This document shows, piece by piece, positions 1 to 20,000 of a stretch of 20,000 nt of DNA. A model generated the notes under the pieces. That model searched no databases. It was not told where the DNA came from and saw only the letters and a program-made list of their open reading frames with translations. Numbering within the stretch: position 1 is the stretch's first letter; each line of letters starts with the position of its first letter. The stretch comes from Psammoneis japonica (taxonomy: Eukaryota), in contig QPGO01000197.1 of assembly GCA_008632985.1 (NCBI GenBank), positions 115,713 to 135,712 of the forward strand. The letters run 5' to 3'. Both the position numbers and the translations under genes were made by a program.

Positions 1-482
1 ATGCGGCATGCGAGCGCATGCATCAAACTGTTGGAAGTGTCTTGCGCACTTTGCTTCATGTTTGTCCTCCACAGAATGTTGAGCAGGCCAATCAACTGGT
101 GGACAATGCATTGGCAACCGCCATGCATGCAATGCGATGTGCGGTTTCTCGTGCTCTCAAGATTTCACCCGGTGCTGTGGTTTTTCAACGTGATGTGATT
201 CTCGACTTGCCGGTCCCAGCCGATCTTGCCGCCATTCAAGAACACCGACAAGCGATCATCAATGCGAATCTCCGTCGAGCCAACGCTAAACGCCGATCCC
301 ACGATTTTCAAGTTGGCGGACAAGTTCTGCTCAAGGCCATCGACCCAACCAAGCTCGAGCCACGAGCTCACGGTCCACATCCTGTCGTTCAAGTGCATGC
401 TGACGGTGCGCTTGCGGTCCAACGTGCACCTCATGTGACAGAACGATTGAACACACGTCGCGTCGTACCGTGTCACACCTGA
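1..482 (+). mobile_element. Ty3/Gypsy LTR retrotransposon pol C-terminus (end of integrase core plus GPY/F-type module), eroded by TpA mutation
   Basis: Translation reads ..CERMHQTVGSVLRTLL..ATAMHAMRCAVSRALKISPGAVVFQRDVIL..NAKRRSHDFQVGGQVL..KLEPRAHGPHPVVQVHADGALAVQR..ERLNTRRVVPC. This matches the Gypsy integrase tail (ERxHQT..L, SPG.lVF.RDM, KL.PR..GPY.I..VH.NGT..I, ER.NIRR..P). 5' part lies outside the window. Confidence 0.9.
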
Positions 483-582
483 GGTCAAGGGTTTTCTCCC
501 CAACATTTGGGTTTCCCTTCTATCCTCATCCATTGGAATTTAAATTTTTTGAGTCCCGCATGATTCTCGACACTCGAGTCAT

Positions 583-594
583 GGAAGGGAAGAG
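583..594 (+). other. Polypurine tract (PPT) of the Gypsy element
   Basis: GGAAGGGAAGAG, about 100 bp after the pol stop and immediately followed by TG. Confidence 0.75.
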
Positions 595-722
595 TGCAGT
601 GTCTCGCACCTTATTTTTCTGACACACAGCATTAATGAACCTGTTAGATATAACGGAAGCCGTTGTAACGGGCTTCGCTGAAAGCGACCCTCGTTACCTC
701 GGTCTTTCGCTCACAATTTTGT

Positions 723-746
723 NNNNNNNNNNNNNNNNNNNNNNNN
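723..746. other. Assembly gap (N run)
   Basis: Run of N. Confidence 1.
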
Positions 747-777
747 ATAAGTAATCATAAGTCATCATAAGTCATCA
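747..777 (+). repeat. Short tandem repeat, about 3 x ATAAGT(A/C)ATC
   Basis: ataagtaatc ataagtcatc ataagtcatc a. Confidence 0.8.
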
Positions 778-1064
778 ACAGCCCTCACGACTCAAAACAT
801 AGAAAGGCACATGAATAAATAATGCATAAACAGTATTATGTTCTTCGCCAAACAAGACTAAATTTAACGGATAACCGTTAAAAACTACATAACACCATTG
901 ACAAAAATTTCCGTTGTGTTCATATAAATATACATAACTCATAAAAATTCGCGGACGGTGCTGTGTTGTTGCGTGCATCGCACAAACCATCCTCATGATG
1001 TTACCAACAGACATACACCGCCAACATTTCTGCTCTTCAAGATAGGAACTAGTCGTTGTTTACT

Positions 1065-2295
1065 ATGAGGATTTCAACTGTGTGTGCTGTTACAAGTCTT
1101 GTTGTTGCCCTGAGTGCTGCTGTTGAAGGAACCTTTTATCCTGCAAACAACATAGAGAATTTCAGTTTTGCAGGCCGGTGGCAACAGCTTGAGGATGATG
1201 GTGTTGTCAGGTCGGACTGGCCGTGCAGCAGAGTGCAATTCAACATAAACATGACTGCAGAAGATGGCGTCATTACCCTCCGAGTAAAACTTCATCGGGT
1301 GCGGCTCAACGCAGTCGTCACCAACGCAGTCACCGGCGAACTGGAGCAAACAACGATTCTGAAAGGTAATTCGTTTCGGCAGAGAAGGATAAATACGGCA
1401 TTCGAATTGAAGCACCGGAATGCACACCGTCACACTGACAAAATTGACACAAGCGGCACCCTATGGCAATGGTTTGGGCAAGTCAGCCACGTCGGTGCTT
1501 GAATTCTATGGAGTAGAAATGGATGACGATGTCGCGACTCTTTCGCTTCCACCAAAACTGCCGGTACACCGGATTGGTTTTATTGGTGCCAGTGATACGG
1601 CAGGCTTTTGTGTGGATGGTACTCCGCAAGCATGTGACCATCTCGTTCGACCCTGGAAATACAACAATTGCGACTCTGCATATCCTGGCGTCTTGGGAAA
1701 ACGTTTGAATGCCGAGGTGAGCGTCCAAGCCATATCAGGCATTGGACTGACGCAGAATGCGTTTGCGAATTTGCCAGTGGCGCTTGGTGAAAAAACAATA
1801 CAGGATTATTACAACCGAACCCTTCAGACAGAGACGCTGCCTTTTTGGGACTTTGAAGAGTGGCGACCACACCTTGTGATTGTTTCTCTTGGTGGAAATG
1901 ATTATAACCACCAAGAGGAGGTACCTTCCAACGAGACTTTTGTTCAAGCATATCAAAAGTTTCTTTTACAGATTGCCGAACCATATACAAACGATGAAAT
2001 TCCAACAATTGTGAGTATATGTGGGCAAGGGGACCCGACGGAACTGAGCCGAGATCCAAACAATGATCGTTGTCGGCCTTGTCCGTACATACAATACGCG
2101 GTCGAATCCTTTCAGACTATGCATGGTGCAACCATTCCGACCGAATACATTTTTGTTCCATGCGACGGCACGGTTGTGTCGGGAGATGGTGATATTGGTT
2201 GTGACGGCCACAAGAACCGGCTTGGTCAAGAGCGGGTGGCTGACTTTTTGGAACCAAAGCTTCGTGAAATCATGGGCTGGCCCAACAGCCAATAA
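1065..2295 (+). CDS. Secreted carbohydrate esterase family 2-like (CE2) SGNH/GDSL hydrolase, split by two apparent 1-bp deletions at about 1380 and 1412
   Basis: Signal peptide MRISTVCAVTSLVVALSAAVEG; CE2 N-terminal module (FSFAGRW..SDWPCSRVQF); SGNH blocks RIGFIGASDTAG (Ser nucleophile), AISGIGL, SLGGNDY and GCDGH. ORFs 1056-1502 and 1420-2295 join if the extra C and G seen in the paralogue (about 4279 and 4311) are restored. Confidence 0.85.
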
Positions 2296-2812
2296 GTTCG
2301 ACAGAGCCGATGGCTACATCAACGAGCGGAGGTGTTGCGATGACTGTCGTAGCCTACCCATGTAGTGCACGGCAGCATTTTGGCATTATCGGAAGTTAAC
2401 TTGCTGCAAAGGGCGACGTATTATTTCAGCTTCTTCCTTCAGACTTAGTGAGCTCTTGTGTGATGAGAACTTTCCTCTCTCTTCTGCACCGGTGTAGTCT
2501 CGAGATTATGAGCTGTAGCTACACAGATGTGACTTTTCAATCGCTTTGGGCTCCTAAGTGTCAGCTAAGTCGCAAAGCGTCAACCGCTTATTTTGCCATA
2601 AGAATCTTTGGTGAAAGACATAAGACAGCGTCGTGCGCAACAGAGTCACTCTTGCCGTGAGTAGGTTCAACACACGTCGTATTGGATAGTTTACAGGTTT
2701 TAGCTGTTATAATAGACAATGTCTAATGTGCAATACACTGACGTTTCGTTACGCACTGGCATATTTTGGAATGGTGTGAACGTGCTGCGATTTTCCGCCA
2801 ACAAAAGTCGGA

Positions 2813-3604
2813 TCAAGTCAAGAAGCCAGCATCCACCAATCCCTTGATTTTTTTACACTCGACCTTGTGATTTCTCTTCCATGCAGCACGTTGGCATTCT
2901 TTGGAACAAAATTGGGCGATTTTGCAGGCGGAGCACTTTTTCATGACTCTTGCAGAAACCACCTTTTGACAGCCCGGACAATACGCCTTGCGCCCATCCA
3001 AGCAATGGCAATCAATGCGGCGAGCGAGAAACGGAACCACATCATCGCCGCAGTCAATGCGAGCAACCTCTCTGTAGCGATATTTCAAGGCGTCCGTTTC
3101 AGAGGAAAACTTCGGCTGACTGCCCGTCTCTTCTTCCGCAAGTTTTTCAATCACCACGCATACTGCGTCAACAACGGAGCCCTCTCCGGAGGCAACTGGG
3201 GGTCACCGTCCACCAGGGCGTCAACCGCCGTGGAAAAAAGAAAGCACGCAAAATCTTTTGTAATCGGAATTTGATCCTTACAAGCATTCACGGCATCTAC
3301 GGCGGGGCTTAGTTGGGTGTTGTTCCAACTAATTCGCACAAGCCTCGTTCAATTTTGACATTGACATTGAGTAGGACATGAATTTACTTTTGTTGCCTTG
3401 ATGGTTGTAACAGTGATAGCACGGTTCACCATTCGGTTTGTTTGCCTTGTGGATACAAAACGGGTTGTTGCACGGACAAGCCGCGGGTGCTGGTCTCTTT
3501 TCCGCAACGCAGCCTCTGCACAACCGTTTTCCCCACTTTGTTAAGTTCAAAGGCAGTAAAGTCCGCCGAACCAGCTCTTCTTGACAACGGTAGCAGGTCG
3601 GCAT
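2813..3604 (-). CDS. MYND-type zinc-finger protein, frameshifted near 3158 and 3335
   Basis: C-terminal CPGCQK..KKCSACKIAQFCSKECQRAAWKRNHKVEC is a canonical MYND finger, preceded by FLARRIDCHCL. Upstream ORFs 3151-3339 and 3329-3604 (MPTCYRC..CRGC) overlap it in different frames. No clear intron signals. Joining the three ORFs is inference. Confidence 0.7.
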
Positions 3605-4340
3605 GGTGTATGATGATGGTTTTATAATCGTCAATCTGTTTCCACTCTTCTTGATTCTTGATGCAATGCTAGATGCTTAGCTACTGTAGCTATCGAAACT
3701 GAAAACTTCTGTGCGCCGCAAGCCGCAAGGCAGACAACGCCTGCAATGAGGCACAGAATCAAGACCAACACACACCCGAGACACTGACAAGACAATCCCC
3801 GTGGACTGACGTCCGTCCCCCAGCCGTCCCGACGCCCGTCGCAGTTTTGAAGTTCGAAAGTTGTGCACATCGAACAAAAACCATCCCATGGTTATGGTGT
3901 CACTGCCAACAGACAGCACCAACCTTGTTGCTTTTCAAGCTACAGCCGTCGTGTTGCTGTGAGGATTTCAACTGTTTGTGCTGTTGCAAGTCTTGTTGTT
4001 GCCTTGAGCGCTGCTGTTGTTGAAGGAACCTTTTGTCCTGCAACAATGCAGAGAACTTCAGTTTTGCAGGTCACTGGCAACAGCTTGAGGACAATGGTGT
4101 TGTCAGGTTGGACTGGCCATGCAGCAGAGTGCACTTCAACACAAACATGACTGCAGAAGAGATGGCATCCTTGCCCTCCGAGCAAAAATTCATCGGGTGC
4201 AGCTCAGTGCAGTCGTCGCCAACACAGTCACCAGCAAACTGGAGCAAACAACAATTCTGAAAGGAAATTTGTTTCAGCCAGAGAAGGACAAACATGGCAC
4301 TCAAATTGAAGGCACCAGGGTGCACACCGCGGCATTGGCG

Positions 4341-4730
4341 GACGTGCTCCAGCCCCAGGTGGGACTCCGTGTGACATTGGGCCCGTAGAATTCTACGTGC
4401 GAGCTCCGCAGTGCAAGAATTTAATTGATGGATGTGTTTGTTTTCAACATCAAATAGACGGCCAAGTTTGTGGCACAATTGTGCCTCTCACCACTCGACG
4501 TTTTTGCAAATGCGCCTGCCCTGCGCGATTCTCAAGACGTCACAGAATCGCGCTGTGACAAAAAATGTCAAAAGTTTTTGGACGGATCGCTCAATGACTG
4601 CACCGTAAAATGACACAAAATGTCGAAAAAATCACGCAGAAATCTGTGTGCGCGACATGCGACGTGATTAAAAAAACTGTCGACGTCACAGCTCAGCAGT
4701 GCGAGGTCCCACCCAGACCTGGAACGCGTC
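4341..4730. mobile_element. Non-autonomous TIR element (MITE, 390 bp) inserted in CE2 copy 2
   Basis: Absent from the intact gene. Left end GACGTGCTCCAGCCCCAGGTGGGAC versus reverse-complemented right end GACGCGTTCCAGGTCTGGGTGGGAC. GGCG flanks both sides (4337-4340, 4731-4734). Internal 14-bp palindrome CGTAGAATTCTACG at 4384-4397. Confidence 0.85.
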
Positions 4731-5517
4731 GGCGCTGACAAAATTGCTGACACAAAAGCGGTGCACCCTGTGGCAACGGTTTGGGCAAGTCAGCCATGCC
4801 GGTGCTTTAATTCCACGGAGTGGAAATGGATGACGCTGTTGCAACTCTTTCAACTCCACCAACACTGCCAGCATGCTGGGCTGGTTTTGTTGGTGCCAGT
4901 GATGTGGCAGGCTTTTGTGTGGATGGCACTCCGCAAACATGCAGCCATCTTGCTCAACCCTGGAAATGCAACAATTGCAACTCTGCATGTCCTGGCATCT
5001 TGGGAAAACGTTTGAATGCTGAGGTGAGCGTCCAAGCCATTTCAGGCATTGGACTGACGCAGAGTGCGTTTGCAAATTTGCCAGTGGCGCTTGGCAAAAA
5101 AACAATGCAGGGTCATTGCAACCGAACCCTTCAGACCAAGACACTGCCTTTTTGGAACTTTGAGGAGTGGCAACCACACCTTGTGATTGTCTCTCTTGGT
5201 GGAAATGATTGCAACCACCAAGAGGGGGCACCTTCCAATGAGACTTTTGTTCAATCACATCAAGAGTTTCTTGTGCAGATTGCCACAAGCCATTTACAAA
5301 CGATGAATTTTCAACAATTGCGAGCACATGTGGGCAAGGGGACCCGGCGGAACTGAGCCAAGATCCAAACAACAATCATTGTCAACCTTGTCCACATGCA
5401 CAAGATGTTGTCAAATCCTTTCAGATTGCGCATGGTGCAACCATTCTGACCGAACACATTTTTGTTCCATGCAACGGCCCGGTTGTGATGGGAGTTGGTG
5501 ACATTGGTTGTGACAGC

Positions 5518-5908
5518 CACAAGAACCGGCTTGGTCAAGAGCGGGTGGCTGACTTTTTAGAACCAAAGCTTTGTGAAATCATGGACTGGCCAAACAGCAA
5601 ATGCGTTTGACAGAGCCGATGGTTGCACCAACAAATGGAGTTGTTGACACAAGAACCAGCTTGGTCAAGAGCGGGTGGCTGACTTTTTAGAACCAAAGCT
5701 TTGTGAAATCATGGACTGGCCCAACAGCTGACATGCGTTCGACAGAGATGATGGCTGCACCAATGAATGGAGTTGTTGACACAAGAACCAGCTTGGCCAA
5801 GAAAGGGTGGCTGACTTTTTAGAACCAAAGCTTTGTGAAATCATGGACTGGCCTGACAGCTGATGCGTTCGACAGAGCCGATGGTTGCACCAACAAATGG
5901 AGTTGTTG
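5518..5908 (+). repeat. Tandem triplication of an approximately 130-bp unit (CE2 C-terminus plus start of the 3' UTR)
   Basis: AAGAACC(G/A)GCTTGG..GACTTTTTAGAACCAAAGCTTTGTGAAATCATGGACTGGC recurs at 5521, 5651 and 5783. Confidence 0.95.
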
Positions 5909-6382
5909 TGATGACTGCCAGACAACTGCGGACATTGTTGTCTGCTCATGTGGTGCCATGTGCAACATTGCAACTTTGTCAGAAGTTAACTTGCTGTAGA
6001 AAGTGACTTTGGTTTTAGTTTCCTCTTGCATTGGTGAGCTTTTGGATGATGAGAACTTGCCTCTCTCTCTGCTGCACCAGGCAATCTTAAGACCAGGTGC
6101 TGTTGCCACACGTGCATCTCTTGAGGAGAGAGAAAGAGATTGTTCTAAGTCAGAGTGATTGTGGCTGATGCGTGCAAAGCTGCCATGTGTTTGGAAGTTG
6201 TGGTGTCTCTCATGAATCAGGCTGGAGGTGTTGGCATCCTTTTGCACTGCCAGGAATCCCACTGCACCAGTCTCATTTTCAAGCAAGAATCTTCCACACC
6301 AGTGCTCATGTCCCAAGTTTCTCAGATGCGGAAGATTGGAGACCAACAGGAAATGAAGTGGTCTGTGCTTCCCCCTGCATGA

Positions 6383-6424
6383 GTGTGTGTGTGTGTGGTG
6401 GTGTGTGTGTGGGGGGGGGGGGGG
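6383..6424 (+). repeat. (GT)n microsatellite followed by a poly-G run
   Basis: gtgtgtgtgtgtgtggtggtgtgtgtgt followed by a G homopolymer. Confidence 0.8.
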
Positions 6425-8177
6425 TGCTGTGCGTTGCTGCTTCTGAGGTGCTTTGTGCATTGCAGAAGCAGCACTCATGGCTGCGAGCACCTGACAAGCC
6501 ACGGCAACCTCACTCTTTTCTTTCACCAATGTTGCACTGCATGTTTGACGAGTTGAGAGTGAGTTTTTGCTTGCAGCCCACACCACCCACCCATTGTGGC
6601 TCTCTGGCAAGAGCTCCAGTTCTGGGTTCCTTGAGTTGCAAGCTCTGGCTTGAGGTCTGGTGCCAGTGGCTTGCACCACAACCAACCAGAGTGCTCAAAA
6701 TCAGGATCATCAGCCAACAGTGAAGAGCAGAGTCAGAGAATGACAGAGGTCAATTGACCAGCAATTGCTGAAGAATCAGCTGGTTGGCCATTGAGCAAGT
6801 CAAAATGACAAGGAATTCAAAGACTCAGGTTGCACCTGGCACTGGCAAAGCTGGTGCTGGAAGCAAAACAAGAGCAGTGGTGCTGGGTGCTTGCTGAGGA
6901 AGCAGCACATGCTCCAGCCACACACGAGCTTTTGTTGTGATCTCAGGACAGCCAGCAATGCTGAGCTGGGAGGATTGCCTCAGTGAATGGTTGTGATTTC
7001 CAAGTGCATGTGCTCATGATTGGTGTGCCACACAAACAGCACCCAGTTGCTTGTGCACTCTGTGGGAGCATCTTTGCTGCAGTTGTGCCTGCTGTGCAAT
7101 CTTTGCAAGTTTTTCACATTTTTGATCTTTTCAACTCTGCTGAAATTTTTTGCCAACAGACAGCACACCACCGACCAGGGAGGTTTCCACAGAGAGAACG
7201 TTTGATGTGCGGCTGCTGCAGCGCACCTTGGATCCTGTTGCATCATGGCATTTGTTGATTCCGCTGCTGGCGCGGCCGTGCTTGCTGGGGCAAGAGCTGG
7301 TGGTGGTGGTGGTGGTGGGGTGGAGGTTGAGAGTTCAAATCTGAGGCTCTGTCAAAAAAGCAATTGTGGCTTGTGAGGCAAAAGAAGAGCTGCCGCCGAG
7401 TGCTTCGCCAGCCTGGAGCCACTGTTGCTCTGTGTTTTGCACTGGTCACTGGCTGCCATCAAATGGCCAATGGAGTTGTGTGGTTCTGTTGCATTGGGGC
7501 CGGGAGACACAGAAATGGATTGCAGTTGAGTCACATGAAGAGCTGCGGGGGCGGTGAAAAAAGACAGAGCTGGAGCATGGGATTCAGATGGGATTGAACA
7601 CAACCAGGCCTGCGGGGAGCATTGACCACTTGTCTTTCTTTGTGGGTGTGGGTGCATGTGTGCCGTTGCATGCTGCATTGCCTGTACGTGCACAGGGCCC
7701 TGCCGTCGGGGCCGGCATTGTGGTGGCTGAGTGGCGTGGCCACCGCACCGGTGACGCGGATGACCGTCACATTTGATGTCTCATGCCATTTTTGGGGCTG
7801 CAGCGAGGTGCACGGACACTCTTTTTTTTCCAATTTATCGCCACAACAGCACATCGCACAAACTCACTTGTTGTTTGATGTGTTTTCCCCAGTCTGACTT
7901 TTTCATGTAGAATTCACGACAAATTGTCTTTGTGTGCAACTGAACACATTTTTGAACATGCCACGCCGGCAATCCCAATTTTTCAGAACTTTTGAGCTCT
8001 CCTGAAAAACCGTGCCATGCACCAGTCGCAGGGAATTTGCCGATTTTTTAGGATGTCCCCACAACCTCTCATGTCCTCAATGACAATTCCAAGAATCCGA
8101 AGAATTCATCTGCACTGAACAACCCATGCCCTTTCAAAATCCAAGGGACACACTTTCAAATTCAGACGGACAAACCG

Positions 8178-8207
8178 ACTGCCCCACTGCCCCACTGCCC
8201 CACTGCC
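8178..8207 (+). repeat. 8-bp tandem repeat (ACTGCCCC) x3 plus a partial unit
   Basis: actgcccc actgcccc actgcccc actgcc. Confidence 0.85.
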
Positions 8208-8489
8208 GGACCGACACGAAAAAGTCTGCAATCACCAACCACTGAGTGGTCAATGATTTGTTCTTCTGCTCACGCATGTCATGCTTCGAGCAGTCATGCA
8301 ATCTGTCCGTCGGTCTGTGCGTGAAGCCAAAAAATGACAAAAGAAAACAAACAATGAAAGAAGGCTCTGCGTGCGTTGCAGGTTGCAGCAGTGAAGCATC
8401 CAGCATTGCTGCGATCGCTGCATGCTGCGTCTCTTCATCCTCCCCACCTTGCCATCATCTTGAGTGCCACTTTTGACAACAAGCCTTCC

Positions 8490-9272
8490 ATGACTTCCTT
8501 TGACCAACTCGACAAGGGTGTTCAGCGTGGGCTGCAAGTCCTTGCAACACAGCATCGGCATGCTGTCGTTCAAGCAGTTCTCAAGAAAGAAGATGACTTT
8601 GGCAGGACAGAAAGTCATGAACTGTACAAAGGCTGTGCGCAAATCATGAAGGAAGAGAATTTGTCCCCTGCTGCATTTCTGGCTCGCTCTTTTGACATGA
8701 AGGTGCTGACGGGTCACGCTGAGTGGCTGGAAGCACCCTGTGACAAAAACAACGACACCGTGACCGACTTGTGCACATGCTTGGAACAAGCGTGGCTCAA
8801 CCGAGAATTTCCGAACAAATCAATTCCGATGTGTGACAATGCCAATCATGAGGAAATTGAAGGGAGGAAGAAGAAGCTCGAGCGCGAGGCCCGTGAGAAT
8901 TCGTCGTTCGAGAAGAATGATCCAACAGAAATGACCAAGCCACACTGCCGGTTCTTCATCTGCCTTGCACATGAAGAAAAGGACAACAACCAACCTCCTG
9001 AAAACTTCTATGAAATGGCAGAAGAGGCGGCTCAAGCTTTCTGGGAATTGATGTTTGGAACCTGTGGGCATGCCAATTGCCACTTGGATTGCCCCGGTTG
9101 GCTTGCAAACAAATTCTTCATCTCTGCTGAAGTTGAACTTGAAAACATGGAAACCACTGGTGTTCCGGAAACTGCAGAACTGATTGATCAAGAAATCTCA
9201 ATGAAAGGGGTGTTCAGATTGGATGCGGGTGATGTTGGAAAGAGTTACGTTGAAATCACTCGTGTGGAATGA
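8490..9272 (+). pseudogene. TpA-eroded gene of unknown function (260 aa, frame still open)
   Basis: Protein-like, charged and helical composition (MTSFDQLDKGVQRGL..SPAAFLARSFDMKVL..AWLNREF..EEAAQAFWELMFG). Only 3 Tyr, with Cys/His at plausible Tyr positions. Lies within the TpA-depleted domain. Could still be expressed. Confidence 0.55.
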
Positions 9273-9483
9273 ACGCCTGGTGTGGCACATGGCTCTTGCA
9301 TTGAGGTTCACAGTGCCACTTGATTGCCAGGGGACAGCTCGGGGAACACATTCCACATCTTGTGAATGGTCGTGCGGTGGCAGAGACACGTTCACATCAC
9401 CGTGACAAATGTTGCTTTGCATTCTAATGACCAACGACAAAGGCTGCAACACAACTCAAACCATTGTGCAGAACTGCAGCCAT

Positions 9484-9940
9484 TGCAGTGTGCATGCAGA
9501 CAAAAGGTTGTTTTTGTCATGCCCTTTGTGACATTTAAAGGCTGCAACACGTCGCTGTGATGCATTGGCTCTTGTTGGCAGCTGTGTGTTGCACTCCTCC
9601 CCATGTGTCACGCGTCCATGCGGCTCTTTACTGACATGTGCTGACACTGCACGGTTTTGGCAGAACAGTGTGGGTGCGTGCGAAGGAACATGCAGAACTG
9701 CACAGAGTTTTTACGCGTTCGACAGTGATCAACGTTGCTGCAGACAACTCCCACTCAGGGTTTCGAACCCCTGGCCTCCTGCCTGATGGTTGCGATGAAC
9801 TGCTGCATTGTGAACTCACAATGCAGTGTGCATGCAGACAAAGGTCATTTTTGTCATGCCCTTTGTGACATTTAAAGGCTGTAACACGTCGCCGTGACAC
9901 ATTAGCTCTTGTCAGCAGCTGCACACTGCACTGTCCCATT
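9484..9940 (+). repeat. Pair of approximately 120-bp direct repeats (9484-9605 and 9822-9940)
   Basis: TGCAGTGTGCATGCAGACAAA..TTTTTGTCATGCCCTTTGTGACATTTAAAGGCTG(C/T)AACACGTCGC occurs twice, 338 bp apart. Confidence 0.9.
9747..9815 (-). pseudogene. Possible tRNA-derived remnant (B-box/T-arm)
   Basis: Minus strand reads ..GCAGGAGGCCAGGGGTTCGAAACCCTGAGTGGGAG, resembling the 3' half of tRNA-Asp/Glu (GGTTCGA in a CAGGG/CCCTG stem). No intact anticodon arm. Confidence 0.35.
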
Positions 9941-10515
9941 GTTGCCGTTGCATCTCTCTAGACTGCAAATTTCAGTTTGTCGTGTTCGCAAGCAGCTGCA
10001 GTGTTGCACTCATCTTGCAAACTTTCCTTCCTTCTGATTGTTCCGTCCTTCTCTTGCTTGAGATGGTCCCTGCCACGCATGCCGGCAGAAGTCAGTCACC
10101 CGATCTGGGGGGGAAGCATTTTGGTTTTAGGCGGGCGGGCTCATCGCGCCCTTGCCCAGTCATGATGTCACGATCACGATCACGTCCATCCATCTGTCTC
10201 ATCAACGCAGACGGGAAATTGACCGTGCTTCCACCAAATGGCAAACTGCCAACTGCTGCTCTAGATCAGAGAGGGTCATCACCAGAGTGCAGCCACAAAA
10301 AAAGATGAAATTGGTGCCTGGAGATGCTGGTCCATGGGCATTCTTGTGGCGCACTGAGAGCAAAGCTTTTCTGCATTTTGTGCACAAACCATCCCCTCTT
10401 GAGCCCAAGCATCTCGGCATGGGGTCATTCACCACAGCATGGGCACATCATTCCTCTTTTGTCACTGCCAATTGGGAGGACTTTTGCTCCTTTGTTGCAC
10501 CTCATGTAACAGCAT

Positions 10516-10945
10516 CTTTCTGGAAAACTTGGAAGAGCAACAGCAGCTCTGCACCTTGTGATTGTCTCTGTTTTCTGTTGGTGCAAACAACCACAGCCAT
10601 CAGGAAAATGTGCTTTCTTTGTTCAAGTGCATCAAGAGTTTCTTCTGGACATTGTCAAGCCACATGCACATCATGCAACTCCAGCGCTGTGAGTGCATGT
10701 GGGTGAAGGGACCCCCGACCGAGGTGAGCCAAGACCCAAACAATGGTCATTTTCAGCCTTGTCAAAAATCCTTCTAGATTGGCGTTCATGGCACAACAAC
10801 TCCATTGGAACACATTTTTGTTCCATGTGATGGCACAGTGATCTCAAGGGAGATGACAATGTTGGTTGTGATGGCCAAGAGCGGGTGGCTGACTTTTTGG
10901 AGTCAAAGCTTTGTTGAGAAGTCATGGGCTGGCCCAGCAGCCAAT
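10516..10945 (+). pseudogene. Third, more decayed fragment of the CE2 gene (3' part)
   Basis: Matches about 1851-2293: CACCTTGTGATTGT, TTTGTTCAAG..CATCAAGAGTTTCTT, GAGCCAAGACCCAAACAATG, GAACACATTTTTGTTCCATGTGATGGCAC, CAAGAGCGGGTGGCTGACTTTTTGG, CATGGGCTGGCCCAGCAGCCAAT. Confidence 0.9.
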
Positions 10946-11330
10946 TTTGAGCACAAAAAGCAATTGGCATTGATGACTTTTGAGGAAAAAGCAGCTGAGA
11001 CTGGTTGGCAAATCCAAGTGTTGTTTGAGCCCACAAATGCTTTTTGACTCTCTGCTTGGCATGTCTTGCTCTTCCTCAAAACTGCGCTCCACACCTCTAA
11101 TGTCTCAGGGGCAAAACAAGCATTTGACAATGGAGAACAAAAGGACAATGCAGCCATTGACAATCAGCAGATTGAAGGATCTCTTCAAAGATCCAAAAAA
11201 CCAAGAGCTTGTTGTCTTGTCAGCTTGTTCTTGCATGACAGGGGGAGGCCTTGGTGGAAGCTGGTGTTTCTCATGTTTTTAATTCGTTTGTGGGACAGGC
11301 CCACATCACAAGCATGATGGCAGACAGACC
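10943..11330 (+). pseudogene. Decayed CHAT (caspase-HetF-like peptidase) domain fragment
   Basis: Read across frameshifts: NFEHKKQL..IQVLFE..ALHxS-(C)xG-QNKHLTMEN..LKDLF..ELVVLSACSCMTG/EALVEAGVSHVF. This matches the CHAT motifs LHFSxHG and LVxLSACxS..G.AF..AGV.HV. Confidence 0.65.
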
Positions 11331-12638
11331 TTCATTTGTGCATTCATCCAATGCATTGAAGCCACCAGCGCTGCATTTGCCTCCTCCTCGGATGTCCACT
11401 TTGGAGTCATCTTTGGAGTTGTGGAGTTGCTGATGCGCTGATCATGGGAGTGGTTGAGCTCCTCTTTGCATTCCCTTGTGCTTCTTCTTTGCATTTGAGA
11501 CACAGGTCTCTGCTCTCTTCTTGATGATGGAGTTTGACTCTTCCTTGTCCTGAGGTTTCTGACTGGGCTTGTTGTGGAAATCACTTCAGCACCCCCAAGT
11601 GCTTCACAGAGCTCTTCACTTTGAAAGAGTGACCCGGTCAAACATTTTGACCATGTCTTGGCCACAAAGCCACCTTCTGGGACAGCAGCATTGTTGAGGT
11701 TTTTGGTTTCAGCAATCATCTTGGATCTGCTCATGGCGGCTGCATCTTTTGTGGCTTGAGTTGGTGCGGGCTCCCCATGCTGACTGACTGACAATGTGCC
11801 GGGTTGGTCATCAACCAGGGACTCCAGCCAATGTTGCATCCACAGCCAAAGTGCCCAACAGAGCTGATGACTGCGCCAACAAACAGGGGCATCACAAAGA
11901 CTGCCAGGCCACTGCGACATTGTTTTGCCTGCCCACTCCTGCGCACAGCGCTGCAGCAGAGTTGTGGCATCAATCAATGAGGAGCATGAGATCCACAAGA
12001 GGGGAGGCAGTGCAAAGCTCGCTCTCCACTCACAAATGTGCGCGAGGTTGGTGAAAAGAAAGAGCGCGCTCGCAGCTTGCTCTGGTGGCTTGCAGCGCCA
12101 ACAGACTCCAAGAAGCAGCTCTCGAACATCGGCAGAGCTTGAGAGCTCCGTTTTGAGCCTCTGCAAAAAAGCAATTGTGGTGTGATGTTCACCCTGCCTG
12201 GAAACTGTTCTCTGGTGCGTTGTCGTGTTTCTCTGCCAAGCCCAACAGCCACGTCGAGTTGCCGCCCTCGTCGTCTGGCCCCCGCTTGCTTTTTCATGGT
12301 GATGCTGGCCTGGCCGGAGGGAAGTTTCGCAAGTTGAAGTTCCCATGCGATCTTTCTTGCGTGAGTTTGAAAATCTGAAGCGCAACAACATGCGTTTCTC
12401 CGGCTGGCAGCCTCCATGGCAGGGCAGCTGCAATGACATCCAATGGCACTGCCCAAGTCACAAAAATGGCCCCTGCTGTGGGTTGGGCAATAGGACAATG
12501 CTCGCATAATGCGACGACAAATTTTGTAATGACCTTGAGAAAAATTCGAAAAATCCGTTGCTCCTCGCTCCTGGCAGCGCAGCAATGCCGTCAACACGCC
12601 CCATTCACTCTTCATCTCGTTGTAGTAGATTGTAAACC

Positions 12639-13724
12639 ATGCTGTCAAAGAGCCTCAAACATGCTGCTATTACCATTGCTGTAGGGCTTATTACATGGGA
12701 ATTATGTTTTTTACTCAGAGTTCACTCGTCTTCTGCTCTCTCCTCCTCGTCTTATTCGGTCGGACTTCATCAAGCCAATAAGTTTGAAAAGTACAGTGGC
12801 AATTGGAGGTCACGACCGTTGGTGATGGTTTCCAATGGTTGCTCTGGAAGCACGTTCGCAATTGCGTTTGCACGAAAGCTTGTGGAGCGTCACACGGGGT
12901 TGGATCCCACAGTCAGTTTAGCACATGACGAATCCTCTGAATTTCTTAAACACCAAAACAACAAGCTCTTTAAAAGAAAAATGTCAGACCCGGTTTTGGC
13001 AGACAAGGACATGGTCATCGATAGCTACAAGCACGTGATGAGGAATCATTCTCAAGTGTTTGTTCCCAAAGTTCTGGCGCCTCATCTTACACGTGGGGTG
13101 GTAGAAGGACTCAAGCAGCTGAATCCTCGTTATGTCTTGATGTACCGCAGTAATATATTGGAACGGATTATTTGTGACATTCGTGATTGTTTTCTACCAG
13201 AATCAAATCACCAATCTGTGTTTGAGAACGGTACTCGTTCCGATTTTTGTTATGAGCGACGAGAGCACCCTGAAGTCAAAACTCTGGCTCTTGTCAACAA
13301 GAAAAACTTTGAAGAGGTGGTGGCAAGAGACATGAAAACGTGGGGCTGTGAAGAAGCTTTGAAACGTCCGTCTTTAAAGTTGAGATTGGACCAGGCAATG
13401 GATTTTGACAATAAAAAGGAAAACTACCCTCGCGTGGAAAAGGAACTTCTCGAAGCCTTTCAATACGTGCCAGAAAAGTCGGTCGAATTCCAACAGAGTG
13501 TTGACGAATGGAAGACGTTGCTACTGAGCTGGGATATCGAACCGCAAGAATCCATAATTGTGGATGAAATGCGCAGTAAAGGTATTGATAAGCGGAATCA
13601 CAAGAGCGTCTTGAAAAATGTTTACAACACGGATTTGATTGAATCTCTATTTCAATACTGGGCAAAGACCCCCCACTACTGTGACTGGCGATGGATGATG
13701 CATGAGCGTCGAGAGAAGCCATGA
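12639..13724 (+). CDS. Type II membrane sulfotransferase-like protein (P-loop fold, Stf0-like motifs)
   Basis: 361-aa intact ORF with normal Tyr and TpA content. N-terminal anchor AAITIAVGLITWELCFLL; 5'-PSB-like VMVSNGCSGST; 3'-PB-like YVLMYRSNILERIIC. The CDS is confident; the function is inferred. Confidence 0.7.
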   Translation: MLSKSLKHAAITIAVGLITWELCFLLRVHSSSALSSSSYSVGLHQANKFEKYSGNWRSRPLVMVSNGCSGSTFAIAFARKLVERHTGLDPTVSLAHDESSEFLKHQNNKLFKRKMSDPVLADKDMVIDSYKHVMRNHSQVFVPKVLAPHLTRGVVEGLKQLNPRYVLMYRSNILERIICDIRDCFLPESNHQSVFENGTRSDFCYERREHPEVKTLALVNKKNFEEVVARDMKTWGCEEALKRPSLKLRLDQAMDFDNKKENYPRVEKELLEAFQYVPEKSVEFQQSVDEWKTLLLSWDIEPQESIIVDEMRSKGIDKRNHKSVLKNVYNTDLIESLFQYWAKTPHYCDWRWMMHERREKP

Positions 13725-13979
13725 AACAACTAGTTGACAATCGAGCTAGCTAGTATAGCCCAAAGCAATAGCCGTTTACACAAGGAATGAAACAACAAAT
13801 TGAAATGTGAAAAACAAATATTACTAATATTACCCAAAGCAGCACATAACTGATTGGATTGTGGAAGAGAGCTGCAACTCCTTCTCTTTACTAAAAACAG
13901 AACTACGCATTTGCCATGCTGAAAGATAAATATGGAAACATGCATTGTACTGTCAAAGCATCCCTTGTGTATACGTCTT

Positions 13980-16900
13980 TTACCTTTTGCTTTTGCGGAT
14001 GCGCAGCGAGCCAAGAAATGAACGTTTCGGCTTTGCCCCTTCACTCGTATGCTTAGCCTTGTGGCCTTGATTTCCGTCAGATCTCGGTTTCTTCAACATT
14101 CGTGCAACCCGTCCTTTGCTCGCCTTGTCTTCACAACAAAACAAGGCCATTTTGCAAGAGACACCTTTTAATTCCTTTGCACATACAAACTCCACCGACA
14201 CTTCGGAGTCCATGGTTGGAGGTGGTGGCATCTCTGCTGACTCGACAACTGGCACTCCCACAAACACCTTGCCCGCATCCGTGGCAGCCGCAACCCGAGC
14301 GGCACGGTTCACTACAGGACCGACATAATCGGCACGACCGGTCAATGGATGCGGGGCCATTCCTGAAAAGGCACCAGAATGAATACCAACTCGGATAAGA
14401 TTGGTGGTATCAACTTCATCGTCAAAGGGTGCGTTACCAACCGCCGTCATGAGCATGAGCCCAAACTTGACAGCCGGATCCAACGATTCGAATGCAATCA
14501 CCCATTTGCCTTATTCGTCGAAACAAGAAATTTGTTAGTTCATTTCCAAAGAACCCATCGGCATGTATCGACTGCCTATTTACCTTTGTCTTCTTGGCAT
14601 TCGTAGCCCGGCGGCGACACTTGCAACAGTAGAGACCTGACCACTTTTGTCAAGATCGAGAATGTCCGCTGCGCCAAGTCATCAGCAAAGTCATCTGTCC
14701 CCGATGGATAAACAAACATCATTGTAGCGGTTCCACTCTTATCCGGTGCATCCAAGAACGATGTAGTAAGTCTGCGGGTAGTGTCAGCCTGCGGGGAACC
14801 TCCGTCCTCTTGCCGGCACAAGAGAAGCGTGGCTAGTACTACCGGTCGCATTGAAGTAATCATAGGCCAATTCCTTAGGAACCAACTGTACGACACCCTT
14901 TGCAATGATACCTTCGTCCATAAATTCACCAGTCATGAGCACATACTCTCCATAATCAACTACTTGAGGAGTTCCCAACTGCTCACTCAGTTCAGAAACA
15001 ACCCGCCAAGTTTCGGCAGTTGCCAGTATCTGTCCACCAAAACACAGAGCCTCGATGCTTTTTGCCAACCGAAACGTCTTTCCGGAATACGATGCACGAC
15101 CACTAACTTCGTTGATCTGAGGCGTCGCACTGCCATGGTGGATACCCATCCGGACACGAAGGCCACGAAAGCGTCCCTCTTCATCGATGCCTGCATCAGC
15201 CAAGGCTAGAATACTATCCGACCAATCTGCCTTGTACAACTCCATTTGAGCCTCGAGAGCAAATCCAATGGCATCCACGGGATCATGAAAGGCCAAGTGA
15301 AACGCGTCGCCTTCAGTTTTGATTTCGTAGCCACTATGGGCGGAAATGCACTTTCGGAGGATTTTGTCATGCAAGCCCAACGCCTCCTTCATGGCATCAG
15401 CGTCAGCCTCCCAAAGAGAGGTCGAGCCTTGAATGTCGGTAAGAACAATCGTGACCTCACCAGACGGGGCATCGCGCTTGCTCTCTCGCAACGACATGGT
15501 ACTAGTGAGGTGCTTGAGGAGCTTACGTTCTTCGACAAGCTCGTCCATAATTCGACGGTGCTCCCAATTTTCAATGGTTTGCGCCATGAGGAGAGCCATT
15601 CGTTCAAGCTCTAATTCGTGGTCCTTGGTGAAATCGTGCCTCGGAACTGTGTCCAACATGCAAAGCACAGCTACGACGTACCCATCGGAAGTGATTATAG
15701 GAGTTCCAACGTAAGAACGCATGGGACTACCAGTGTAGCAGCTCATAAATGCCTCATCCTTCCACAAATCGGGGACAACAAACGTGCCTCGTTTCATAAT
15801 TGTATAGTTGCAGGCGGTGGTGCCGCGTCCATAAGCAACGCAAAAGGGGGCGCCTTCGCTGTCGGAGCAAATCGTCTCTCCAGCTTGAATAACACCAACA
15901 CCGCCGTCCTGAATACCAAGGGCGAGCTGATTCGAGTGGTTATGGATTGTGATGGCAACAACTGGAAACCGAAATAGAGACGCAGTCCTGCCGACCAATC
16001 CCTTTAACTGCTTCGCCATGGGCGAGTCGGGATCCATCTTGTGCAATCCCAATGCCTCTACCCTGGATACACGGGCCATGTCGTCTCTTCCCACGGGTGG
16101 CGGAGGCATACCAGCCTTAGCAGCCTCTTCGAAAACCGAGGAAGGAATGTGTTGCCGTTCCAACTCTGACGCTCGATACCGGTTTGCCACAAACGGCAAC
16201 AAGCTTGAGTTCGAAGTCGGGCCATCATCAACATGTGGTGGTACGTTCTGCTCAGACTTGGACGACTTGGGGCCATCATCAACTTGTGGTGGTACGTTTT
16301 GCTCCGACTTGGATGACTTTTCTTCTTCTTCTTTAGACTTGAGATCCATGTATTCTTTCCTGGCGTTCGCAACTTGTTCTGTAAGTGACTTGTTGCGATC
16401 TTGCAATTGTTTTCGTAGACGGAGTTGCTGCTCCGTCATGGCAGCAATCTCGGCGGACAAGAGTCGCAAGGACTCCTCTTCACGTTGACTCTCTTCATAG
16501 GTATCTGTGGTAATCTGGCATACTACTCCTAGTCTCGACCCGTCATCGTTCTTGATGACGTGACCCACATAGGTTGACCCAATGGAACGAAAGTCCTCGA
16601 TTGTCACCTCACGAATGACAAAATCTTTGGACTTGTCCAACACCAACTGAGAGCAGAAACTTTGATTATGATCCACAACTGTTCCTCGATCCATAGGTAT
16701 GAGTTCACCGTTGGGTCCACGCAGATTTCCACAGAGCACGTGCTGACCATCTAATCGACACAGGTGTACGCCGGCATAATTGGCGCTGGAATTGGATCCC
16801 ATAAGTTGTCTCGCAAGTCCATCAAACTCCTGAATCTCTGAAATGGGAGTATACGCGGTCAAGTCATACTCTTCTGCGGCCAAAAAATCAGGCACATCTT

Positions 16901-17270
16901 GATTAGGAGGGATGCTTGATTCTGTTGACACCTTTTCTTCTTGTTTACAATCATCCGTGTTGTTCGTCTCGACCACAGGTGTCGTCGGAGCAGACTTGTC
17001 CGTTTTCTCTTGATCCAACAAGGATGACTCCAATGCTCGCGCAATCACTTTTCGATGAATTTTGGACGAAATCTCCAACTCGTCCAGCATCTCTTCGAGT
17101 TCGCTCGCATCATCTCCAAGGGAACTCAAGAGACCGCCGTCAATCCCGGAATCGCGAATCGAGGCAGCATACTCTTTATACTTTGGACCACCCAACGAGA
17201 CTACGGAATCAGCCACATCGTCCTTGGTCCACTGCTCCAAAGGACGACTCTTCGATTCAGAGTTGCCCAT
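13980..17270 (-). CDS. Class III nucleotide cyclase: SAM + two GAF + two tandem cyclase homology domains; one intron (14510-14583) and one apparent frameshift (about 14795)
   Basis: Start MGNSESK. SAM: LEQWTKDDVADSV..YAASIRDSGIDGGLL. GAF1: SFCSQLV..YVGHVIKNDDGSRLGVVC. GAF2: TACNYTI..VVPDL..RSYVGTPIITSDGYVVAVLCMLD. CHD1: VTIVLTDIQGSTSLWE..EIKTEGDAF..LRVRMGIHHG. CHD2: GYECQEDKG/KWVIAF..IRVGIHSG..ADYVGPVVNRAARV. Confidence 0.9.
14510..14583 (-). other. Spliceosomal intron (74 bp) in the cyclase gene
   Basis: Minus strand AAAG|GTAAAT...CTAAC...TAAG|GC. Splicing joins ECQEDK-G-KWVIAF in frame. Confidence 0.85.
16219..16318 (-). repeat. In-frame 51-bp (17-aa) tandem duplication in the cyclase linker
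   Basis: KSSKSEQNVPPQVDDGP KSSKSEQNVPPHVDDGP. Confidence 0.9.
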
Positions 17271-18386
17271 GTTGTCGCTGTTGTATGAAACAATATTTGA
17301 AAAGTGAACCCGTTCTTCTGATTTCGCAAGATCCAGATCGCAAATCAAATCTTAGGTCTCGCGTTCTCTCTTTTGAGAGTACTGTAGCTACTGCATAGGC
17401 CTACAGTAGAGCTATCGTGTATCGCATGGGCGGCGGGCGGTGCGGCGTACCGTACAGTAGAGTTCTTCTCTGTCATGTCGTTGACAACTTCAACTTGTAA
17501 CGGCGAAAAAGAACGTTGTCACCAACAAAACTCAAAAACTGACATCATGAATGACGGGTAGGGCCCTAAGTAGAAAAAATCAAGTAGCTTTTTTACTAAA
17601 AGTCAGCTGGATTTCTACTGGCAATCTTGGTGCAGTCTGCACATCACCCCTAAAAATGGAAAAAGCACAAAGAACCTGTCATGCATGGAGGCCATTTGGC
17701 GCGACAGGAGCTCGTTTTCTGACTGACAAGCAGTTTTCAGGCAAGTGGAAGTAGATTGAGTAGATTTCGAGCTGTTTAGAAAAAAAAAAATCATGATGTC
17801 GGCAGTTGATTTTTTTGGCGACACTTGTCTTGGCCAAACATTTCTCGCCCCTGTGCAAGGGCTGCCGTGGGATGCATGTGGCTGTGGTGTGTGATGACAT
17901 CATCACACTCGTTGAGCTGAGCATGCACACAGCTTTGCCAGCATGCACATGTCATCAAGGTGGCATGAGATGAAAATTGTGAAAATCATTTCTGCGTGCA
18001 TTTTCTGTGAAAATCATGGGAGTCAAAGATTCGTTGTCGCAAAAAAGCGCTGTGTGTGTTTTCAGCAAACAACATGGTCAGCATGCGAGCAACAGCAAGA
18101 GCATCACTCAATGGAAACTCTGGATTGCTCATTTGCATGAAAGGCACTTCCAAGATGAAAACACTTGTGAGCTGAAAGCTGAAGCATGTGGGCACATTCT
18201 CTGCGCTGTCTCGGCCACCTCTGACAAATGTGAAAGAAGCCGCAGCTTTCGACACTTTTTCCCACTCAAGCAGCCAATTCAAAAATTTGGGGCAAAAAAC
18301 ATGACCTTTTTTGCCAACTGCAATGTCATGTTGATTGAATCTTGAAATGCGCAGCTTCTTTTCATGGACAAGTCAAGAACACACCA

Positions 18387-18648
18387 GGCCTGTTCCAGCT
18401 CCAGGTGATGCGCACAGGCTCGATTCCCATCACTGGCCCATTTTTGCATTCAGTGCAACAAACTCCTTAAAAATCAGGTTTTTTTCAAATCGAAGGGTGA
18501 GTGCACACAAAACTCATGCATTTTGTGTGCACTCACCTTTCGATTTTCGAAACGATCAAATTTGAAGGAGTTCTTTGATGCGCTGAACTGCACAAAGAAT
18601 TGGCCTCTTGCGTGATGGATTTCTCATCCCCTGGGGCTGGAACAGGCC
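18387..18648. mobile_element. MITE (262 bp) with 24-bp TIRs, 4-bp TSD and a central hairpin
   Basis: Left end GGCCTGTTCCAGCTCCAGGTGATG versus reverse-complemented right end GGCCTGTTCCAGCCCCAGGGGATG (22/24). ACCA flanks both sides (18383-18386, 18649-18652). Inverted repeat at 18487-18546. Confidence 0.85.
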
Positions 18649-18812
18649 ACCAATGAAGAATGCAGGACACTTGTTTGAAAGGAAACACAGCATTCAATGG
18701 CATCCTGGGAGAGGCCAAACTGAGGCCATCATTTTGTGTGGAAACATGCAGAAATCACACCGGAAAAATGTCCCAACAAATTTTGCCTTTTGCCATCATG
18801 GACCAGTGAAAA

Positions 18813-18849
18813 NNNNNNNNNNNNNNNNNNNNNNNNNNNNNNNNNNNNN
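18813..18849. other. Assembly gap (N run)
   Basis: Run of N. Confidence 1.
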
Positions 18850-20000
18850 CATCAAAGTGCTCAAGATGACACATCATCTTGAACCAATGCAAGGGCCTTT
18901 TTCATCAATTCTGTGGATGAAGGCTCCACTTTTTTGAACACATCATCTGTGACATCAATGTCATGGAATGACCAAGATGGCAATGAATTTCCTTTTGTTT
19001 TAAATGTGCCACCAAAAGGTGAAAGAAGTCAAGAAGCTGCCACACGGAGGACCCAAAGAGCTTGCACAGGGAAACTCAAGTCATGGTTTTTGATGGAAAT
19101 GATGATGGCAATGATGTGATTTTGGATTGATCTTTCGACTCTCTTCCCTTTGAGACTTGGAAAAGTTTGTCACATCAGATTTGGGGGCAAACGGCATTGA
19201 AGCCACCCAGGCAAGAAGTGAAAAACATCTTTGCTGCTTTCGCCAAAGACATCAACCATGAAACAGATCAAGATGTTCTTTTTCTGCTTCTCTCTGATTC
19301 AATGGATTGTGAGCTGCCCCCTTGTGATTGCAGCTCAAAAAATGTTGCCAGGAGACCTGCCACCTGCTAGAATCAAAAGCAAAATCAGGTTGAAGCTGTC
19401 AGCTCACTGGTGCTCTCCATGCCAAGCCCCTTTGCAACCATTTTACAAACACCACAATCACTCATGGACTCCTTCATGCCTTTGAATTTTCTGTGACAAG
19501 CTGTGCTTGCAACTGGAGACTTTAACTTTGAACGCTGTGCTCACAAATTCTGTGCAACAAGTGCAAATCATTTGTGTCTTTCCCAATGCTGTGCCTCAAT
19601 GCCAAAGCTTTGTCACTGTGCAATCAAAACCAAAATCAGATGCAAGCACAATCATTTCCCCAGTTGTCCAGAATCTGTGCTAAGATGCCACCGACAACAC
19701 CATCTTTGCAGCTGAAGCTGTCAGCAATGTTTCAGGCAGAGCACTGCAGGATGCTGCGCGTGACGAGCATTCAAGCACTTTCCTCACTTTTGCCCAAGAC
19801 TTGAAAGGTTGAACACTGCTGGACTCCTCGTTGATCTGCACTCAAACAAGACCACTTCAAAAGGATCTCCATGTCAAAACCAATGCCTTTGCACCTGACT
19901 TTGTCGCAGGCTTGTTGCTGTCCTCCAGATGTGCAACAGACTCAGAGTTTTTCCAATTATTGAAGCGGCACTCCCTCTTGTTCACTGTGGTTGTTGCTTT

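Follow-up and report, generated by a model that had tools for sequence, protein, structure and literature searches.

TpA-stripped blocks beside TpA-normal gene islands: a likely footprint of region-targeted A-to-G DNA hypermutation

The closest described counterpart of the locus analysed here is the TpA hypermutation of Bigelowiella natans, a marine alga (Mettrop et al., bioRxiv 10.64898/2026.01.13.699255, 2026). The locus is a 20,000-nucleotide stretch of eukaryotic DNA (contig QPGO01000197.1, positions 115,713 to 135,712 of the forward strand; "the window" below means this whole stretch), in which blocks stripped of the dinucleotide TpA adjoin gene islands where TpA is normal, and in which one stripped block holds a mutated copy of an esterase gene that lies unmutated in the neighbouring island. 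According to the text of the preprint, 231 of the 302 new nuclear single-nucleotide mutations in mutation-accumulation lines of B. natans lay within two integrated viral regions; of these 231, 230 were changes of A>G or T>C, each at a TpA, and the local mutation rate was ~1,000-fold above that of the rest of the genome. The same text describes the hypermutated viral region as single-copy and the changes as arising in situ in DNA, links the hypermutation to DNA of foreign origin (virus or transposon), proposes an ADAT2-like protein as the agent, and sets cluster cut-offs of ≤0.43 for rho TpA and ≥1.52 for rho CpA+TpG. A full-text literature search found no work matching the signature of the window besides this preprint (10.64898/2026.01.13.699255). 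The signature is best read as a member of the B. natans type of TpA hypermutation, a very recently described kind.

Two further systems serve as points of reference. Repeat-induced point mutation (RIP) of ascomycete fungi converts CpA to TpA (C>T) and so creates TpA; it requires duplication and mutates both copies, properties that Mettrop et al. (2026) also cite. The deaminase TadA edits the A of TACG (PMC5630033).

TpA-stripped blocks and TpA-normal islands

Composition was followed in 500-bp sliding windows and with a two-state hidden Markov model (HMM) on P(A|T), in both cases within the one 20-kb window. The observed/expected ratio (obs/exp) of TpA was 0.00-0.23 in the first 500 bases, at ~3.75-12.5 kb and after 17.75 kb, and 0.4-0.8 elsewhere; in the low-TpA windows CpA+TpG obs/exp was raised to 1.5-2.0. 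The log-likelihood of the model improved by 149.5 from one state to two (-1344.0 vs -1194.5), with P(A|T) emissions of 0.148 for normal and 0.017 for stripped DNA, and five segments resulted (Table 1). Block 1 extends over 8.8 kb (39 TpA in 8,792 bp) and block 2 holds 7 TpA in 2,210 bp, blocks 0 and 2 being truncated by the window ends; the overall count was 42 TpA in 11,131 bp of stripped DNA vs 323 in 8,458 bp of normal DNA. Seven non-coding-looking stretches within the normal islands had TpA obs/exp of 0.55-0.86, and since non-coding DNA of the islands thus retains TpA, the contrast is not one of coding versus non-coding sequence. The TpA-stripping is confirmed as real and is very strong.

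These results bear out the division into TpA-normal islands and TpA-stripped blocks proposed in an earlier, sequence-only reading of the same DNA. The two stripped blocks named there stand, with corrected limits: the left edge of the larger block lies at ~3692 rather than 3850 (3692-3892 holds no TpA), the first island starts at 521 rather than 750, and the first 519 bases, a further stripped block, had been missed. The proposal that the edges are graded fared less well. TpA in sensitive contexts occurs inside the edge only at 3893 and 3941 (Poisson p ~0.06), and the AGTAG sites at 17569-17765, taken to lie inside the right-hand edge, are placed in the normal state by the HMM. Normal DNA carries one TpA per 25-30 bp, so that the block edges are sharp to ~200 bp.

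The listing of public data gives one sample that contains the stretch and no RNA run that does. Whether the stripped sequence is real was assessed with the short-read-like contigs of run X1; contigs of a further run, X2, labelled 'DNA?', also map to the window. Contigs of X1 with a word depth of ~54-58 differed from stripped DNA by 1 letter in 1,022, 12 in 1,295 and 2 in ~1,400, and from island DNA by 0-8 letters per 1,046-2,657. A base-calling artefact would require ~35 differences per kb; with the stripped sequence recovered in X1 contigs, it is unlikely. Summed word depth in X1, which is not a copy number, had an island baseline of 54-79. It was very high in bins 4003-5336, 7338-8671, 9339-10005 and 18010-18676, and near baseline (64-86) in the stripped bins 8672-9338, 10006-10672, 10673-11339, 11340-12006, 18677-19343 and 19344-20000; by the same measure block 0 belongs to a repeated element. 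Long pieces of X2 were confined to 1193-3297, 12618-13907 and 14024-17274, with 2246-3297 as the second covered region of island 1. On the stripped blocks X2 gave little or no cover outside repeat-containing bins, which is not evidence of silence. The assembly of the window is imperfect, showing indel-type disagreements with the read contigs and two N gaps.

Direction of the change and its motif

The CE2-type esterase gene of island 1 and its degenerate copy in block 1 (Table 1) form a before/after pair that fixes the direction of the change. The 41 TpA sites of the gene have become TG (18), CA (18), TT (2), AA (1) or GA (1) in the copy, with a single TA kept. One mutation destroys its own target, so double changes of TA to CG are not expected, and none was seen (0/41). 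At the 70 CpG sites of the gene, 47 of which are changed, the copy reads CA (29), TG (17), CG (23), AG (1) or TT (1), and only 75 of the 1,030 other sites (non-TpA, non-CpG) are altered. The stripped copy descends from DNA of normal TpA content, with a single transition at each TpA. It aligns best at 3946-4334 and 4745-5646, carries frame breaks, and reaches from ~90 bp upstream to ~230 bp downstream of the open reading frame (ORF).

Only one partner of the duplicate is mutated, as the sequence-only reading had held. The gene has its synonymous and flanking TpA in place: in its stretch 1459-2292, 8 TpA occupy codon positions 2-3 and another 8 span a codon boundary, against 1 and 0, respectively, in the same-frame ORF of the copy at 4811-5353. 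The related claim that the pattern differs from pairing-based RIP is supported as well, the partner being spared and the stripped blocks holding diverse sequence, much of it of near-single-copy word depth in X1.

In the alignment of gene and copy, the strand-collapsed frequency of A>G per A-site was 15/26 for TAC, 17/34 for TAT, 2/7 for TAG and 2/15 for TAA, compared with 0-0.15 elsewhere. As a single hit removes the TpA site, ~0.5 is the ceiling for this frequency. At asymmetric TpA sites the strand bearing TAY (Y, pyrimidine; R, purine) was the one hit in 17 of 21 cases (binomial p 0.0036), with 12 TG to 2 CA at YTAY sites and 5 CA to 2 TG at RTAR sites. The TpA that survive point the same way, being mostly YTAR (24/40 in the blocks vs 46/323 in the islands; Fisher p 1e-9). 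Relative to island density, survival was 0.65 for TTAA, 0.34 for CTAA/TTAG and 0.35 for CTAG, and 0.00-0.12 where the TpA has a purine on its 5' side or a pyrimidine on its 3' side. The mass balance agrees, with TAY down by 20.9 and TGY up by 20.0 per 1,000 trinucleotides. Along the copy the TG and CA outcomes (18:18) alternate at random, in 19 runs vs 19.0 expected. The mutated base is the A of 5'-TAY-3', YTAR is largely spared, and there is no strand clustering.

The esterase gene itself has, by its SGNH domain, its nearest solved relatives among CE2 enzymes (2wao, 2wab, 2waa, 2w9x and 4xvh; E 8e-12 to 1e-5) and scores 26.1 bits against Pfam Lipase_GDSL_2, under the gathering cut-off of 32.9. 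Its best homologues are unnamed JGI or Logan proteins of ≤67% identity, and those with names come from a diatom, the bolidophyte Triparma, haptophytes and the pelagophyte Aureococcus. A frame break near 1415-1423 is crossed by the homologues, which align straight over it in two frames, and over 1193-2236/2256 the X1 and X2 contigs exceed the window by 2 letters. Together these two facts suggest an indel error in the window's assembly, and the gene is probably a single intact, intron-less exon. An intron of the gene persisting in the copy was considered and rejected, as homologues align straight through 1415-1423.

Contents of the blocks, CpG decay and neighbouring genes

The stripped blocks hold diverse sequence, comprising the host gene copy, repeat fragments and unique-looking DNA. 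In the tandem triplication at the 3' end of the CE2 copy, the three units have their TpA losses in common, which dates the triplication after the stripping. An insertion resembling a miniature inverted-repeat transposable element (MITE) interrupts the copy; it retains 6 TpA, 4 of them in sensitive contexts, has a CpG obs/exp of 1.25, and its summed word depth in X1 is >1,000x baseline. Since it keeps TpA and CpG inside a stripped block, it was probably inserted after the stripping. A scan of a 26-base stretch of this element against metagenomes gave no match, and neither did the CE2 protein.

A Pfam scan of the 117 stop-free ORFs (≥55 aa) of the stripped blocks yielded no viral or transposon match at E ≤0.1. 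The GDSL match of the CE2 copy was the only one informative of origin; the remaining matches at this threshold were weak, below gathering scores and to unrelated families. Heavy mutation may be concealing the origins of the stripped sequence. Rfam and tRNA scans gave no match.

Three long stop-free ORFs in block 1, at 11309-12457 (-; 383 aa), 8358-9269 (+; 304 aa) and 5822-6694 (-; 291 aa), exceed those of dinucleotide shuffles, 383 aa being reached in 4 of 300. No credible homologue was found for any of the three. They may be gene relics, and a proposed reason for their staying open is that loss of TA removes TAA and TAG. The only library match of the 383-aa ORF, to P0103 (E 2e-30, 34 stretches), was rejected as spurious, the target being a 2,848-aa translated tandem repeat with single matches of ~30 bits. 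Dispersed repeat fragments lie at 9481-9584, 9819-9921, 7338-8671 and 18387-18648, and include an inverted repeat with 57-nt arms at 18456-18577; the summed word depth of these fragments in X1 is very high, and they are TpA-poor and CpG-moderate.

A second signature, loss of CpG, was delimited by an HMM on P(G|C) (0.057 in CpG-poor DNA vs 0.208). All three CpG-poor segments are nested inside the TpA-stripped blocks without filling them; 7172-10224 of block 1 is CpG-normal. CpG obs/exp is 1.06 in block 0 and 0.33 in block 2, and as block 0 is TpA-stripped yet CpG-normal, the two signatures are separable. Like the decay of methylated CpG, the change has turned 46 of the 70 CpG of the gene into TG or CA in the copy; unlike it, the loss comes in patches inside the blocks and spares 1-519, which argues for a process separate from TpA loss. 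The conversion of CpG to TpG/CpA is probably 5-methylcytosine decay, acting as a second, slower and patchier process.

In island 2, an X2 contig skips 14509-14582 within the cyclase gene, and the ends of the skipped stretch, CT..AC, correspond to GT..AG on the minus strand. The cyclase ORF also contains a 51-bp tandem duplication (88% alike) at 16212-16313. A palindromic motif, (C)TACWGTAG, is found at 3681-3689, 17380-17387, 17401-17409 and 17453-17460 (6 strand matches vs 0.13 expected; 6 reached in 0 of 200 shuffles), with one copy ≤10 bp from the island edge at 3691 and three a short way upstream of the cyclase ORF; the motif may act as a promoter or boundary element.

Table 1. Coordinates of segments and features in the window.
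Feature	Position	Strand	Details
TpA-stripped block 0	1-519		TpA obs/exp 0.07, CpA+TpG 1.53; HMM
TpA-normal island 1	521-3691		TpA obs/exp 0.58, CpA+TpG 1.27; HMM
TpA-stripped block 1	3693-12484		TpA obs/exp 0.07, CpA+TpG 1.69; HMM
TpA-normal island 2	12491-17777		TpA obs/exp 0.54, CpA+TpG 1.19; HMM
TpA-stripped block 2	17791-20000		TpA obs/exp 0.04, CpA+TpG 1.73; HMM
CE2-type (GDSL/SGNH) esterase gene	about 1059-2295	+	Unmutated duplicate partner; island 1; span also taken as 1053-2337
Degenerate CE2 copy with flanks	3860-6111	+	82-86% identity to 968-2524; self-BLAST and alignment
MITE-like insertion	4335-4745		411 bp; imperfect terminal inverted repeats 4338-4365 / 4706-4733
Tandem triplication of CE2 copy 3' end	5518-5908	+	Unit 130-132 bp, 91-93% alike
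Third, older CE2-like fragment	10552-10945	+	~35% amino-acid identity to the gene; TpA-stripped
CpG-poor sub-segment of block 1	4836-7171		CpG HMM
CpG-poor sub-segment of block 1	10228-12018		CpG HMM
CpG-poor sub-segment of block 2	18090-19997		CpG HMM
Sulfotransferase-like ORF	12636-13724	+	Atlas lead only, score 0.95; Sulfotransfer_1 on 24% of cluster members
GAF-adenylate/guanylate cyclase gene	14024-17351	-	74-nt skipped stretch 14509-14582

Explanations and comparison with known systems

The alignment and the segmentation demonstrate the direction of the change, its motif, its saturation, the limits of the blocks and the one-sided hit on the duplicate. We consider it likely that a region-targeted, TAY-specific A>G hypermutation of DNA, of the kind found in B. 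natans, has run to saturation in the stripped blocks and left them as its footprint. In such a process the A of 5'-TAY-3' would become G; this reads as TpA to TpG, or as TpA to CpA when viewed on the opposite strand. The likeliest chemistry, judging from the motif, would be that a TadA/ADAT2-type deaminase converts adenine in DNA to hypoxanthine, which replication then reads as G. The process would work site by site, without strand runs, and would affect whole non-expressed blocks whatever their origin, be it host gene copy, repeat fragments or unique sequence, while adjacent gene islands, including their promoters and other non-coding DNA, would be spared. Silent chromatin or lack of transcription could serve as the targeting cue, and the CpG to TpG/CpA process would affect sub-segments of the same blocks, the young MITE having presumably not yet been hit by either.

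The suggestion of the sequence-only reading that the mutator is guided by chromatin or heterochromatin is plausible, the sole hint of it in the DNA being that the three CpG-poor segments all fall within TpA-stripped blocks. A more specific version, in which a TadA/ADAT-type DNA deaminase of a non-chlorarachniophyte lineage is steered by silent chromatin rather than by foreignness or repetition and saturates every non-expressed block, pseudogenes of the host among them, is offered only tentatively.

Several points weigh against the hypermutation reading or parts of it. X1 may be the source sample of the window, in which case its support is not fully independent. A>G at TAY is the same event as T>C at RTA on the opposite strand, so the motif also fits a chemistry of thymine. 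The loss of TpA without loss of CpG in 1-519 means that a link to methylated chromatin is not general. The preprint text ties the process to foreign DNA, and here the 117 block ORFs gave no viral or transposon Pfam match at E ≤0.1. Finally, the probable lack of introns in the CE2 gene leaves room for a retro-copy origin of its copy.

Among the alternatives, a RIP-like mutation triggered by duplication, which would target the repeated DNA of the block and leak into unique neighbours, fares best and is still unlikely. It would account for a stripped block that starts ~170 bp before the CE2 homology (3693 vs 3860) and contains at least three CE2 fragments along with a triplication, and for the several bins of very high summed word depth in X1. 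It is hard to reconcile with a partner gene that is untouched down to its synonymous and flanking TpA, and with at least six stripped bins near a baseline depth of 54-69 (64-86, again not a copy number). The MITE, the highest-copy element, is the one unstripped piece. The hypermutated viral region of B. natans is, moreover, single-copy (Mettrop et al., 2026).

Slightly less credible again is a thymine-side chemistry, by which an enzyme would modify the T of 5'-RTA-3', for example a TET/JBP-type enzyme hydroxylating it to 5-hydroxymethyluracil (5hmU) within silent chromatin, and the modified base would mispair with G to give T>C. The strand ambiguity of the motif allows this, and base J and 5hmU do occur at T-before-A positions in some protists; 5hmU, however, forms a good pair with A and has little mutagenic effect. 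The context of a T at -1 and a pyrimidine at +1 matches the TadA target TACG (PMC5630033), and the preprint puts forward an ADAT2-like candidate in B. natans (Mettrop et al., 2026), both of which favour adenine as the modified base.

We hold it very improbable that the blocks are edited retro-copies, formed by ADAR-like hyper-editing of RNA followed by reverse transcription and insertion. An apparently intron-less CE2 gene and a copy running from ~90 bp upstream to ~230 bp downstream fit an mRNA template, but 8.8 kb of unrelated sequence is uniformly stripped, 170 bp upstream of the copy included, and both strands are hit equally and in random order. A 3' pyrimidine is preferred here, whereas ADAR prefers a 3' G. 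The preference of ADAR for U before the edited A would suit this explanation; the B. natans changes, by comparison, arise in situ in DNA (both Mettrop et al., 2026).

The absence of any mutator in the host, with the blocks being foreign or ancient DNA of intrinsically low TpA or an artefact that assembly or base-calling produced at modified bases, is just as improbable: the imperfect assembly (a 2-letter indel in 1193-2236, two N gaps) and the lack of an assignable origin for most of the block speak for it, and against it stand the direct TpA to TG/CA changes of the copy relative to its host-gene partner, the absence of TA>CG doubles, the reproduction of stripped sequence by X1 contigs, and a context rule on which the alignment and the surviving TpA agree.

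As a candidate for eukaryotic genome defence, targeted A-to-G hypermutation of DNA is new, having been described to date in a single alga by a single preprint. The gene and its dead copy refine its motif to TAY and thereby narrow the enzyme search towards deaminases like TadA/ADAT. The window further indicates that the process can reach saturation and that it halts within a few hundred bases of expressed genes; since host-derived and unique DNA are hit, foreignness is probably not required. If the host is not Bigelowiella, the mechanism is wider than reported and the TAY/YTAR footprint offers a simple screen for other genomes. Were silent chromatin to prove the cue, TpA density would be a heritable sequence record of long-term silencing and the TAY rule an enzyme fingerprint, searchable in any genome. 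The window proteins had no 100% match in a collection listing NCBI, UniRef, JGI, EukProt and MMETSP (best 67%; best MMETSP-labelled matches ~46-49%), and as no identical entry exists there, the host is probably an organism other than B. natans.

Of the known systems, ADAR-type hyper-editing does not match the window, given that one-strand runs are lacking here and a 3' pyrimidine is preferred. Fungal RIP shares with the window genome-defence-like, dinucleotide-specific transitions, compositionally distinct blocks and killed gene copies; unlike RIP, the process seen here destroys TpA (A>G) and spares one duplicate copy, and the window does not classify as RIP. The tRNA adenosine deaminases TadA and ADAT2-3, and the mRNA editing that depends on TadA, resemble it in sequence context. 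The A edited by TadA follows T and precedes C, the window's motif is T-A-pyrimidine, and the TadA/ADAT context of T at -1 and C or pyrimidine at +1 is thus present; those enzymes act on RNA loops, however, whereas the substrate here must be nuclear DNA, in whole domains.

The B. natans system is the nearest, as far as the preprint text describes it. As there, the changes are TpA to TpG/CpA transitions (36 of 41 gene TpA to TG or CA, none to CG), single-copy DNA can be the target, and the blocks, with rho TpA of 0.04-0.07 and rho CpA+TpG of 1.53-1.73, pass the preprint's cut-offs. Unlike there, the window is saturated (obs/exp ~0.05 vs 0.45 in the nucleocytoplasmic large DNA virus (NCLDV) region of B. 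natans), and its identifiable target is a host gene copy with otherwise unassignable sequence rather than viral ORFs. The terms 'CpG', 'trinucleotide', 'pseudogene' and 'heterochromatin' do not occur in the preprint text, figure 2B and the supplements lying outside this scope, and neither the TAY/YTAR trinucleotide rule nor the nested CpG decay is found in that text. Saturation, a host-gene target, the trinucleotide rule and the nested CpG decay are what the window adds to the process as the preprint text describes it (Mettrop et al., 2026).

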